UHGV virus genome: UHGV-0044850
Length of the DNA stretch: 10,997 nucleotides
DNA from: a virus
Strand: one strand, 5' to 3'
The number at the start of each line of letters is the position of its first letter. The stretch's first letter is position 1. The notes below the pieces were generated by a model. It was given only the letters and a program-made list of their open reading frames with translations. It had not been told where the DNA came from and searched no databases. Below are positions 4,610-10,412 of this stretch, in pieces. The translations under genes were made by a program, and so were the position numbers.

Positions 4610-5787
<1,178 letters not shown>

Positions 5788-5823
5788 TATGGCACCTGTG
5801 TTGTTCTGAGGTGAGCATATCAC

Positions 5824-7316: not shown

Positions 7317-7362
7317 CTGCCAGTCTGTTCCATTTGGCTTCCAGCGTCCTGCTGACGGTTAA

Positions 7363-7391
7363 ATAGTACGATATGTACTTTACAAGATCAA
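7363..7391 (-). promoter_or_regulatory. candidate pL promoter with overlapping operator (oL)
   Basis: Minus strand: -35 TTGATC (7391..7386), 17-nt spacer, -10 TACTAT (7368..7363). The spacer holds the 11-mer AAAGTACATAT also found in the pR spacer. 15-bp palindrome AGTACGATATGTACT at 7365..7379. Confidence 0.4.
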
Positions 7392-7578
7392 TACAATTTG
7401 TTGTAAGTTGGCGTGGTTTTTTATAACGCTTTGTATTTAATAGTGTTGTTTTTTAGCGTGGATGTATTGCCTCGGCGATGTAAGGAGAGATCAGAATTGC
7501 GTGGTTTAGTGGGTTGCATCTATTTATTTTTCAATAAATATAATTGGTTATGTGTTTTTAGGTGGGCGAACGTGAGGC

Positions 7579-7604
7579 AAAGAAAACCCGGCGCTGAGGC
7601 CGGG
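7579..7604 (-). terminator. intrinsic terminator after the two-gene cassette
   Basis: Minus strand CCCGGCCUCAGCGCCGGG (6-bp GC stem) followed by UUUUCUUU, starting 6 nt after the stop of the 250-aa gene. Confidence 0.55.
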
Positions 7605-7609
7605 TTGTA

Positions 7610-8362
7610 TTATGCTGCAAGTCTCTTAACCCAAGTCTCTCTTTTGGAGAATGGTAGAACTTGGCTTGATTCATGGAAGAGTAAGGAGAGTTGTTGCATT
7701 TGATCACCAATTGCTTCGCTGTCTATAACAACAAATCTGTTGTTATACTCCTCACTTGAAGCTTTAAGATCAATTAGTTTCCCAAGCAATGAGTAAGCAC
7801 TATTCCAGCTTCCTCCGTGTTTCACGCTTGATGTAAAAACGTATTTAGGTATGTCGGTTTTTATTGTTACAGGGACGGTAATTTGATGTCCACTCAAGCC
7901 ATATACGTTTTCACGAAGAGAAAGTGCGTCTCTAAGCTCTGTGTGATATAGATAATCAATAACCATACTTTCAAACTTTTCAGCTTGAACTGGCTGATAC
8001 CAGTCTAACGACAAAGTTGATGCGAGTATACCAGCTCTAATTATGTTCGATGTAATCGCACCGACATCCTTTTCTGTTGCCCAAGCAATGATTTCTCCTC
8101 GAGCATTGAGTTCTGCGCCTTCTTTAAGCAGTAATTGTCGTATCTCATCAAGTCGTTTTTTGGTAAGCGAGATCCCTCTTGCCTCCATATTCATTAAGGC
8201 ATCGCATCTGTCACTAACTAAATACCTACCATTGACTTCACGGATAAAGGCACCGACATGCTCTCCATCATCACAGTAAGTGAATGGACTGATAATTCTC
8301 AAGGTCTTGCCTATTGGATGGCATTCGAAACCTAGTTGTGAGATCACTGTTGAGCACATCAT
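7610..8362 (-). CDS. hypothetical protein, second gene of cassette in the rex position (250 aa)
   Basis: ATG at 8362 overlaps the TGA stop of the upstream gene (ATGA). No transmembrane segment obvious. No similarity to RexA/RexB or other proteins I can recall. AT-rich coding sequence. Confidence 0.7.
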   Translation of the reverse strand: MMCSTVISQLGFECHPIGKTLRIISPFTYCDDGEHVGAFIREVNGRYLVSDRCDALMNMEARGISLTKKRLDEIRQLLLKEGAELNARGEIIAWATEKDVGAITSNIIRAGILASTLSLDWYQPVQAEKFESMVIDYLYHTELRDALSLRENVYGLSGHQITVPVTIKTDIPKYVFTSSVKHGGSWNSAYSLLGKLIDLKASSEEYNNRFVVIDSEAIGDQMQQLSLLFHESSQVLPFSKRETWVKRLAA

Positions 8363-8916
8363 ATTCCAAACCCCATTTGCCCCGACTCATCTTCAAGCGG
8401 TAAAGGTATTCTCCCAGAGTAAGTTATGTTCAGATGTTTACAGAAGTAATTCCAATACCCTACCAGGTCATCTGGGTTTATGTCATCTTCGATTGGAAAC
8501 GCTATTCTATCACTATAGTATCCAGCTTCTTCATAGTATACATGGTAGTGAGCACCGTAAATGATATCTTGGTACTTCGGATGATCGACCTTGTAACTAT
8601 TCGTGTGTTTGTCAAAGTGATAGGTATCTACCGCGAAAACCCTCTTGTTATGATAGAAAGCAATAATATTTATTTTAGGGTAAGAAATCGGGTCATCAGG
8701 TTCTGAATCCTGATCTGGTTTCCATTTCAGTTCAAACTTTAGCCCTTGTATAGGTATACAATCCTCATCCAAGGGGATGATATGGGCTTGTAGCCACATA
8801 TCAGAGCGACTTGGTTTCTGTTTCCATTTAACGCCAGAAAAGTTAACTATTTTTTTACAATAAAGTACTTTATCAACTTCTACTTGGCTTGGCTGATAAT
8901 CATCTATTTTTGCCAA
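8359..8916 (-). CDS. hypothetical protein, first gene of cassette in the rex position (185 aa if TTG start)
   Basis: The frame opens right after a TAA stop. The first start-like codon is TTG at 8916 with AGGGCGG 7-13 nt upstream; the first in-frame ATG (8799) has no RBS. Begins 39 nt downstream of the cI stop on the same strand. His/Tyr/Asp-rich (HYHVYYEEAGYY). Confidence 0.6.
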   Translation of the reverse strand: MAKIDDYQPSQVEVDKVLYCKKIVNFSGVKWKQKPSRSDMWLQAHIIPLDEDCIPIQGLKFELKWKPDQDSEPDDPISYPKINIIAFYHNKRVFAVDTYHFDKHTNSYKVDHPKYQDIIYGAHYHVYYEEAGYYSDRIAFPIEDDINPDDLVGYWNYFCKHLNITYSGRIPLPLEDESGQMGFGI

Positions 8917-8955: not shown

Positions 8956-9609
8956 TCACCCAAACGTCTCTTCAGGCCATTGGCTGGCGATAACTTTCCC
9001 CACAACGGAACAACTCTCATTGCATGGGATCATTGGGTATTGTGGGTTTAGTGGCTGTAGAAACACCTGACCGCTATCCCTGATCAGTTTCTTGAAGGTA
9101 AATTCATCACCACCAAGTCTGGCTATGCAGAAATCGCCGGGCTCAACAGCTTGCTCAGGGTCAACCAGAATTAACATCCCGTCAGGAAAGCTGGGTTTGG
9201 AACCTGTTGGTGCGGTCATTGAGTTACCTTCAACCTCAAGCCAGAATGCAGAGTCACTGGCTTTTTTGGTTGTGCTTACCAATCTCTCCGCATCGCCTTT
9301 GGTAAAGGTTCTGAGTTCTGGAGAGAACATCCCAGCCTGAACATGAGAAAAAACAGGGTACTCATATTGTTTTTTAACTGGGGCCGATGAGTATTCGCCA
9401 ACAGGTGAAAATGTCCCGTCGTGGTTGAATGATATGTTATCAATACCAAGGTATTTAAACACCACACCAATATCACTAAGAGATGGATGACGAGATCCGC
9501 GCAACCAGTGTCCAATCCCACCCTGCGTCATACCTAGCTCTTCGGCTAACTTCTCTTGAGTTATGCCGAGCTCTTTCATTCTGGATCTAGCCAGTTCATA
9601 CCATTTCAT
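8956..9609 (-). CDS. cI: CI-type prophage repressor: HTH N-terminal domain plus lambda-type LexA-like (S24) C-terminal domain
   Basis: C-terminal about 130 aa ([28 protein letters not shown]...[12 protein letters not shown]) match lambda cI, including the VQAG cleavage region and the GNSM serine and FKK lysine motifs. N-terminal domain ([38 protein letters not shown]) is a different helix-turn-helix. Start taken as the ATG at 9609 with AAGGA 7 nt upstream; in-frame ATGs at 9615 and 9651 and a TTG at 9657 are alternatives. Confidence 0.85.
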
Positions 9610-9726
9610 TTTCATGTCCTTATTATTACGCTCTGTACTGGAACCATCCATGCACAATGTGTATTTTTACTTGTATTCGCAAAGTACATATTGTATTTTT
9701 TTATTCGTGTTTACTATGGAGGGCAT
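9610..9726. promoter_or_regulatory. oR region with divergent pR/pRM (operator sites not resolved)
   Basis: 117-bp AT-rich intergenic region between divergent cI and cro. Candidate pR: -35 TTGTAT (9671..9676), 17-nt spacer, -10 TATTTT (9694..9699). The spacer contains AAAGTACATAT (9681..9691), the same 11-mer as in the pL spacer. Repeated TGTATT motifs. Confidence 0.45.
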
Positions 9727-9942
9727 ATGAGCAACCTACGAAAATATCGAGAGTCACTGAATATCTCTCAAACAACACTTGCTAAGGCAGTTGGATGCAC
9801 ACAGGGAGCTATCGGACATTGGGAATCTGGTCGTCGCTTCCCAGACCTTAAAACATGCCGTGCTCTTGTTGCGTGCCTAAACAAGTTAGGCGCAAAAGTC
9901 AGTCTTGATGACGTGTTCCCGCCGGAACACAAAGCCGCTTAA
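9727..9942 (+). CDS. cro: Cro-type repressor (helical HTH type, not lambda Cro)
   Basis: 71 aa (MSNLRKYRESLNISQTTLAKAVGCTQGAIGHWESGRRFPDLKTCRALVACLNKLGAKVSLDDVFPPEHKAA). ATG at 9727 with GGAGGG RBS. HTH segment paralogous to the cI N-terminal domain. Confidence 0.85.
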   Translation: MSNLRKYRESLNISQTTLAKAVGCTQGAIGHWESGRRFPDLKTCRALVACLNKLGAKVSLDDVFPPEHKAA

Positions 9943-10027: not shown

Positions 10028-10045
10028 TATGCGTTTCCACGCATA
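10028..10045 (+). terminator. hairpin between nutR and cII (possible tR1-associated structure)
   Basis: TATGCGT-TTCC-ACGCATA, a 7-bp stem, followed by CCTTTCAAC, which is only weakly U-rich. Lambda tR1 is Rho-dependent, so this is tentative. Confidence 0.25.
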
Positions 10046-10083
10046 CCTTTCAACTAACTATTCACTATTGGAAATCTTAAGAA

Positions 10084-10380
10084 ATGGAAAGAACAAGTTA
10101 CAGCAAACTATCACAGCGTGACGTTGATCGCGCAGAAACAGATTTACTTATCAATCTGTCAGCTATTACCCAGCGCGGTCTGGCAAAGATGATTGGCTGT
10201 CATGAATCGAAGATAAGCAGAACGGACTGGAGATTTATTGCTTCGGTCTTGTGTGCTTTCGGAATGGCATCAGACATCAGTCCGATTAGCAGGGCTTTTA
10301 AGTATGCGCTTGATGGACTCACCAATAAAAAACGCCCGGCGGCAACCGAGCGTTCTGAACAAATCCAGATGGAATTCTGA
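10084..10380 (+). CDS. cII: CII transcriptional activator (chimeric: lambda-type C-terminus)
   Basis: 98-aa ORF. C-terminal TNKKRPAATERSEQIQMEF matches lambda cII. Central HTH region (RGLAKMIGCHESKISRTDWRF) and N-terminus differ from lambda. Confidence 0.85.
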   Translation: MERTSYSKLSQRDVDRAETDLLINLSAITQRGLAKMIGCHESKISRTDWRFIASVLCAFGMASDISPISRAFKYALDGLTNKKRPAATERSEQIQMEF

Positions 10381-10400
10381 GGTCATTACTGGATCAATCC
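10324..10400 (-). ncRNA. oop: oop antisense RNA (overlaps the cII 3' end)
   Basis: Minus strand matches my recollection of lambda oop: ...CUGAGGUCAUUACUGGAUC...GAUUUGUUCAGAACGCUCGGUUGCCGCCGGGCGUUUUUUAUU, ending in a stem plus U6 terminator (+ strand 10325..10352). 5' end is approximate. Confidence 0.6.
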
Positions 10401-10412
10401 ACAGGAGTCATT

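Follow-up and report, generated by a model that had tools for sequence, protein, structure and literature searches.

Cro and the cI N-terminal domain of a lambdoid immunity region: probable sister HTH_3 lineages with near-identical recognition helices and an old split

The Cro protein and the cI repressor's N-terminal domain encoded in a lambdoid immunity region are, with a probability that we put at about 0.85, sister HTH_3 lineages that separated long ago, that carry near-identical recognition helices and that most likely read the same operators. The region lies in a stretch of 10,997 nucleotides of the virus genome UHGV-0044850, referred to here as the window, which covers the early-left and immunity regions of a lambdoid prophage. 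It comprises exo, bet, gam, an IS3-family insertion, sieB and N, two genes that take up the rexAB position, and then cI, cro, cII and the beginning of O. Prophages of E. coli ATCC 25922 and related strains match the window over its whole length at 99.7%. The layout is that of a lambdoid switch: divergent cI and cro genes flank three related dyads, a second set of dyads is located upstream of N and cI carries an S24 self-cleaving C-terminal domain. The cII gene that follows cro confirms the lambdoid context of the immunity region. The features on which the analysis draws are collected in Table 1.

Table 1. Features of the immunity region and its surroundings, with positions in the window.
Feature	Position	Strand	Remarks
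OL1 candidate AGTACGATATGTACT	7365..7379	.	Perfectly symmetric 5-bp arms; equivalents upstream of N in L001-L003 and phage 2851
OL2 candidate AATACAATTTGTTGT	7390..7404	.	From pattern search
OL3 candidate ATAACGCTTTGTATT	7423..7437	.	From pattern search
Intrinsic terminator	7585-7606	-	After the gene pair at the rexA/rexB position
Genes at the rexA/rexB position	7610-8362 and 8359-8916	-	Co-transcribed; between cI and OL
cI (219 aa from MKMKW; start 9615)	8956..9615	-	N-terminal HTH_3 and C-terminal S24 autopeptidase
cI TQGGIGHW codons, residues 30-37	9505..9528	-	Most of the predicted recognition helix (31-39); aligns with Cro 25-32
OR3 candidate ATTACGCTCTGTACT	9625..9639	.	Overlaps putative PRM -10 (ATTATT 9622-9627; minus strand AATAAT)
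OR2 candidate TGCACAATGTGTATT	9651..9665	.	(T/C)GCAC-N5-GTATT block conserved in relatives; its centre ~43 bp upstream of the cI ATG
PR promoter, inferred	9671..9699	+	-35 TTGTAT 9671-9676, 17-bp spacer, -10 TATTTT 9694-9699
OR1 candidate AGTACATATTGTATT	9683..9697	.	One mismatch to AGTAC-N5-GTACT; overlaps putative PR -10; conserved in L001-L003
Shine-Dalgarno GGAGGG of cro	9718-9723	+	Read from the sequence
cro (71 aa; HTH_3/XRE-type lytic repressor)	9727..9942	+	ATG 9727, TAA 9940-9942
Cro TQGAIGHW codons, residues 25-32	9799..9822	+	Cover most of helix 3 (26-34), the predicted recognition helix
cII	10084..10380	+	Downstream of cro; Pfam Phage_CII E 7e-34

The interval to which the initial annotation assigned Cro is exactly the cro open reading frame, and the two peptides quoted there for the comparison are both present, as Cro residues 13-41 and cI residues 18-46 in the numbering from MKMKW. 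Cro passes the Pfam HTH_3 (PF01381) threshold with 46.4 bits against a cut-off of 23 (E 4.2e-12), and it has no Pfam match at E <= 0.01 to the true Cro lineage, that is, to lambda Cro (PF09048) or P22_Cro. Phages 2851 and PhiR57_1 have the gene annotated as Cro. That it encodes an antitoxin or a generic XRE regulator instead was rejected, as the cI-cro-cII synteny is conserved in all related loci. Among 1.8 billion representatives, in a search that was dominated by multi-repeat HTH proteins and is informative only on the nearest single-domain relatives, the nearest relatives of Cro are other Cro-like proteins of about 70 aa with 45-57% identity. TQGAIGHW is nearly invariant across the Cro family, which also has a conserved tail, LDDVFPP, that is missing from cI. 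The closest solved relative is the PDB entry 28tn, with 50% identity, an E of 4.5e-17 and TM scores of 0.87-0.93.

The similarity between Cro and the cI N-terminal domain is direct. BLASTP aligned Cro residues 5-66 with cI residues 10-71 without a single gap, 22 of the 62 positions being identical (35%, E 8e-11), and the comparison by hhalign of a profile of 22 Cro homologues with a profile of 16 cI N-terminal domains gave a probability of 99% and an E of 8e-18 over 60 columns. Like Cro, cI belongs to Pfam HTH_3 (E 1.9e-10, 41.0 bits against a cut-off of 23) and it also contains Peptidase_S24 (E 1.1e-28). Membership of the same family and the profile E value bear out the paralogy, or homology, that had been proposed for the two domains. 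The shared motif TQG(A/G)IGHW..G.R.P described at the outset is also real. Taken together, helix 2, turn, helix 3 and next loop are identical at 16 of 30 positions, well beyond chance. Helix 3 itself reaches 7/10. Elsewhere the identity amounts to only 6/36, so that common descent of the whole domain rests on the Pfam family, the topology and the profile alignment rather than on a strong signal in the sequence.

Pairwise phmmer comparisons placed window Cro among its relatives. It scored 60-125 bits with Cro orthologues, 30.6 bits with the N-terminal domain of its own cI and 18-37 bits with the cI N-terminal domains of related phages. The scores with 434 Cro and P22 Cro, whose sequences were verified against the PDB, were 9.4 and 8.9 bits. 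Those with P22 c2 (19.2 bits), the 434 repressor (14.7 bits), the lambda cI N-terminal domain (8.0 bits) and lambda Cro (5.5 bits) were obtained with reference sequences that were only partly checked against sequence matches.

AlphaFold2, applied with the family alignment, modelled Cro as five helices (4-10, 15-22, 26-34, 41-54 and 60-63) and no strands, with a pLDDT of 87.5. The model of the cI N-terminal domain (residues 1-78, pLDDT 90.9) contains helices at 5-16, 20-27, 31-39 and 46-56, and helices 1-4 of the two models coincide at the 5-residue offset of the BLAST alignment. Both predicted models are compact and show the helix 2-turn-helix 3 arrangement of the HTH_3 fold, and the Cro model does not have the lambda-type alpha+beta fold with its beta-sheet dimer. 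Foldseek searches of the PDB matched the Cro model to 28tn, CylR2, P22 c2 (N-terminal domain, TM 0.72-0.77), controller proteins of restriction-modification systems and the 434 repressor domain; lambda Cro was absent among the 50 matches listed. The matches of the cI N-terminal domain model included P22 c2, 28tn, C-proteins and lambda cI (1lli). The claim of the initial annotation that Cro is helical and does not adopt the beta-sheet fold of lambda Cro, an outcome named as speaking against it, thus withstood both AlphaFold2 and Foldseek. The wider statement that both domains are helical stands for Cro, which is predicted to be all-alpha, but has to be amended for the cI N-terminal domain, which is predicted to consist of four helices and a hairpin. 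This beta hairpin (61-63 and 69-71) ends the model where lambda cI has helix 5, and cI residues 61-71 (window 9405-9435) carry a conserved FNxDGTF motif. In lambda cI, helix 5 mediates contacts between N-terminal domains.

Candidate operators emerged from a dyad scan combined with pattern searches; generic repeat finding in the window did not delineate them. There are three per side, and their consensus is AGTAC-N5-GTAYT. Sites with at most one mismatch to AGTACGATATGTACT occur four times in the window, three of them in the two regulatory regions (P ~1e-4). The pattern ACNNNNTGTAYT occurs 10 times in the window, against 0.48 expected, and seven of these 10 matches are located in OR and OL, which make up 3% of the window. 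Because this pattern had been derived from the window, it was tested on independent loci. In prophages of Citrobacter, Cronobacter and Serratia (L001-L003), whose Cro proteins are 72-80% identical, all pattern matches fall either between cI and cro or a short way upstream of N, and each cI-cro spacer contains three sites that are 26 and 32-34 bp apart. A four-spacer alignment (A4) keeps little beyond the three operator cores, a TTG, a TATTnT and the ATTATT beside the cI ATG. The left fragment that had been suggested for binding experiments, 7340-7420, cuts off the OL3 candidate (7423-7437).

Putative promoters were placed relative to these sites. A sigma-70 consensus scan of the window called neither PR nor PRM nor PL, and a weak match of the scan inside cro was disregarded. 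As the scan was silent, the positions of PR and PRM were inferred from conservation in A4, where the TTG of the putative PR -35 and the TATTnT of its -10 are conserved and the -10 overlaps OR1. On the cI strand, the cI ATG is located 7 nt downstream of AATAAT, which suggests, by analogy with lambda, a leaderless PRM transcript for cI, with OR3 over the -10. In OR, the centres of the candidate operators are 26 and 32 bp apart, and in OL 25 and 33 bp, with the order reversed relative to the gene-proximal site. Operators in lambda are spaced by 23-24 bp. Because the spacings in the window differ from these, cooperativity of the lambda type cannot be taken for granted. The cooperativity domain itself is that of lambda.

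The relation between recognition helix and half-site could be followed across relatives. In loci from Erwinia, Rahnella, Pantoea, Thorsellia and Avibacterium, a Cro with TQGAIGH(Y/W) is always paired with a cI with TQGAIGHW, a pairing that holds with Cro identities to window Cro down to 45%, and A(T/G/A)TAC-N5-GTATT sites are present in the loci of these five genera wherever the spacer was recovered. The operators are conserved in the relatives from other genera and always occur beside a TQG(A/G)IGH(W/Y) helix in both proteins. In more distant relatives, cI has K at position 2 of helix 3 and Cro has K, R or P (cI/Cro pairs TKGAVSHW/TRGAVCHY, SKGAVGHW/TKGNISHY and TKGAVSHW/TPGAIGHY) and the sites are of the TATAC-N5-GTATA type. 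Further, one locus with the pair SQGALSHW/SQGSICHY has ATTAC-N5-GTAAT sites. Within this small covariation sample of 14 loci, the last six of which were selected by the QGAIGH pattern in Cro, the coupling between helix and half-site supports, but does not prove, the notion that Cro and cI read the same half-sites via homologous helices. The initial annotation had predicted shared half-sites from the paralogy of the two proteins. Lambda Cro and cI share their operators despite having different folds, and operator sharing is general in lambdoid phages. Since it also occurs in lambda with different folds, reading of the same operators does not follow from Cro/cI paralogy. The prediction itself is consistent with the candidate operators found and with their conservation in relatives.

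Taken as a switch, the region would function as follows. The cI and cro genes, on the minus and plus strands respectively, would be transcribed divergently from a 111-bp region carrying the three 15-bp dyad operators. Cro, with TQGAIGHW, and cI, with TQGGIGHW, most likely read a half-site of approximately A-(G/T)-T-A-C at OR1-3 and OL1-3. Dimers of cI would contact both OR and OL with the N-terminal HTH_3 domain, and the C-terminal domain would supply dimerisation, cooperativity and RecA-stimulated self-cleavage. Cro, a bare DNA-binding domain devoid of a C-terminal module, would compete with cI for the same sites. Residues 84-219 of cI (8956-9366) show two substitutions with respect to residues 101-236 of lambda cI in PDB 3bdn. 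Compared with the wild-type lambda cI sequence, 135/136 residues are identical, and the 3bdn substitution aligned to cI residue 180 is absent. At the level of the sequence, the C-terminal domain of cI is virtually identical to that of lambda, and cI is a mosaic of a lambda-type C-terminal domain and an N-terminal domain that differs in specificity. Because of this C-terminal domain, cI may form mixed oligomers with lambda cI.

Several observations concern the genes around the switch. The IS3-family element in the early-left operon (4640-5823) contains orfA at 5485-5823 and orfB at 4640-5458, both on the minus strand, and is annotated as ISEc52 in matching genomes; in Nissle 1917, where the exo-bet-gam region is absent, ISEc52 adjoins a truncated integrase. 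The products of the two genes at the rexA/rexB position are a 250-aa DUF1828 protein (phrog_1960) and a 185-aa protein (phrog_2017). The pair weakly matches the PADLOC candidate defences PDC-M24B (E 4.7e-10) and PDC-M24A (E 4.8e-4), and it may constitute a defence system of the prophage that is expressed in the lysogen. The CII protein of the window ends in TNKKRPAATERSEQIQMEF, which matches the C-terminus of lambda CII, and the N-terminal DNA-binding part differs; this would make another mosaic junction within a regulator gene. Bury et al. (2018) cloned from Nissle 1917 a 'phage repressor (pr)' gene that lowered the plating of lambda and stx phages (PMC5987069). The forward cloning primer for 'pr' corresponds to 10038-10056 and the forward qPCR primer to 10281-10298, both within 10038-10407 in the cII region and not in cI, and the full reverse cloning primer has no exact match, only its 3' part fitting by eye. 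According to the location of the primers, 'pr' appears to be the CII homologue.

The age of the Cro/cI split was addressed with an 8 x 8 matrix of Cro and cI helix-turn-helix segments from related loci, in which no own-partner enrichment was found. None of the Cro proteins resembles its own cI more than the other cIs of the clade, and therefore the split is old. On this evidence, together with Cro-Cro scores (60-125 bits) above the Cro-cI scores (18-37 bits) and with nearest relatives that are themselves Cro-like, it predates the radiation of the immunity clade and is not a recent copy of the 434 style. The alternative that survives best is that distant HTH_3 domains were driven to one recognition helix by the same operators, mainly by convergence or co-evolution or by gene conversion limited to the helix-turn-helix, without a specific duplication. 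The concentration of identity in the helix-turn-helix (16/30 vs 6/36 elsewhere) would be expected from such a history, but both domains score above the Pfam HTH_3 threshold in one register and with one order of helices, and the profile alignment, at 99% probability, extends over 60 columns. The residue at helix-3 position 2 varies in step between the partners from locus to locus (Q/Q, K/R, K/K), and helix 3 stays the same in Cro and cI though the rest of each protein goes down to about 45%; against this, Cro exceeds its scores with P22 c2 and the 434 repressor with all cI N-terminal domains of the clade but one, and the own-partner enrichment expected from recent gene conversion is absent. On balance, this alternative is unlikely, and it overlaps with the preferred reading because common ancestry and co-evolution can both hold. 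Far less probable still is a recent displacement in which cro was replaced by a duplicated copy of the DNA-binding domain of its own cI, the mechanism described for 434 (PMC6649833): the direct and significant Cro-cI similarity is as in 434, but the identity is 35% vs 52%, the closest relatives of Cro form a widespread family of about 70 aa with 45-80% identity and an LDDVFPP tail lacking in cI, and the cI that matches Cro best is not its own.

A more general proposal can be formulated, although we consider it doubtful. The Cro family could represent a second capture of a cI-type HTH_3 domain at the cro position, independent of that in 434, much older and far more widespread, in which the paired helices follow a simple code: Q at helix-3 position 2 goes with A(G/T)TAC, and K or R with TATAC. 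If this were true, immunity groups could be predicted from sequence, or orthogonal switches engineered, with the help of the helix-3 code.

The distribution of the region defines its immunity group. Between 8900 and 10400, the DNA shows 100% identity to that of phages ev017, ev207, PhiR57_1 and PhiR63_2 as well as that of prophages in E. coli Nissle 1917, ATCC 11775, NU14 and others, and ~97% identity to that of the Stx phages Nil2, 2851, 1717 and Stx2a_WGPS. For cI and Cro, identity to the proteins of the Stx2c phage 2851 is 100%, and the five base differences between the OR regions of the window and phage 2851 are all outside the 15-bp cores. As had been suggested, the immunity group was assigned by database search, and it is that of the Stx phages 2851, Nil2 and 1717 and the Nissle 1917 prophage. 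The flanking modules (stx cargo, replication genes, window IS) differ between the window and 2851, Nil2, 1717, ev017, ev207, PhiR57_1 and the prophages of Nissle 1917 and ATCC 25922; the switch itself does not. Sequenced phage records already annotate the identical genes as cI and cro, and no account of the switch, its operators or the Cro-cI relationship was found in the literature on Nil2, phage 2851 and the operators of this immunity type. Given that the genes are already annotated and that 434 shows the same arrangement, the resemblance between Cro and cI is real but ordinary; its practical value is modest and no concept is changed. The shared cI, Cro and operators predict that certain Shiga-toxin phages and these prophages are cross-immune, candidate operator sequences are supplied for a switch for which no footprint was found in the literature, and the pair provides the study of Cro/cI/operator co-evolution with a second and older example of a cI-like Cro.

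Comparison with known systems puts these results in context. The cro gene of 434 arose from a duplicated cI DNA-binding domain, and P22 Cro belongs to the true Cro lineage (PMC6649833). 434 Cro and the 434 repressor domain are 52% identical, with an E of 2e-21 and, in a second comparison, of 2e-14 (56 bits), and the direct similarity of P22 Cro to c2 is not significant (E 0.36-0.47). The arrangement 'seen in the 434 and P22 immunity types', to which the window had been assigned, is therefore an imprecise grouping: 434 Cro is a cI-derived paralogue, and P22 Cro is helical without significant direct similarity to c2. Judged by sequence comparison, the Cro/cI pair of the window is intermediate between the pairs of 434 and P22. 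As in 434, Cro is a cI-like HTH_3 protein with direct similarity to the N-terminal domain of its own repressor and a near-identical recognition helix, and divergent genes flank a tripartite operator. Contrary to 434, where 52% identity covers the whole domain, the 35% identity in the window is concentrated in the helix-turn-helix, and the whole-domain similarity of a recent copy of the partner cI is not observed. Neither are the window proteins closely related to those of 434 (9.4 and 14.7 bits), the split predating the clade, and the candidate operator is the 15-bp AGTAC-N5-GTAYT, whereas the operator of 434 is the 14-bp ACAA-N6-TTGT. The similarities with P22 are the helical Cro and the match to P22 c2 (33% identity), which is the best phage repressor match after 28tn, CylR2 and 9k3w among the matches listed; in contrast, window Cro scores only 8.9 bits with P22 Cro. 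The protein in 28tn, described as a 'lambda repressor-like protein from Escherichia coli', has the same DDVFPP tail as window Cro but is not the same protein and presumably comes from another prophage, and its recognition helix, TAGAICHY, probably confers another specificity. With lambda, the window shares the order cI, three operators, cro and cII, an OL upstream of N and the C-terminal domain of cI. It departs from lambda in the fold of Cro, alpha+beta in lambda and predicted to be all-alpha in the window, and in the specificity of the cI N-terminal domain and the operators.
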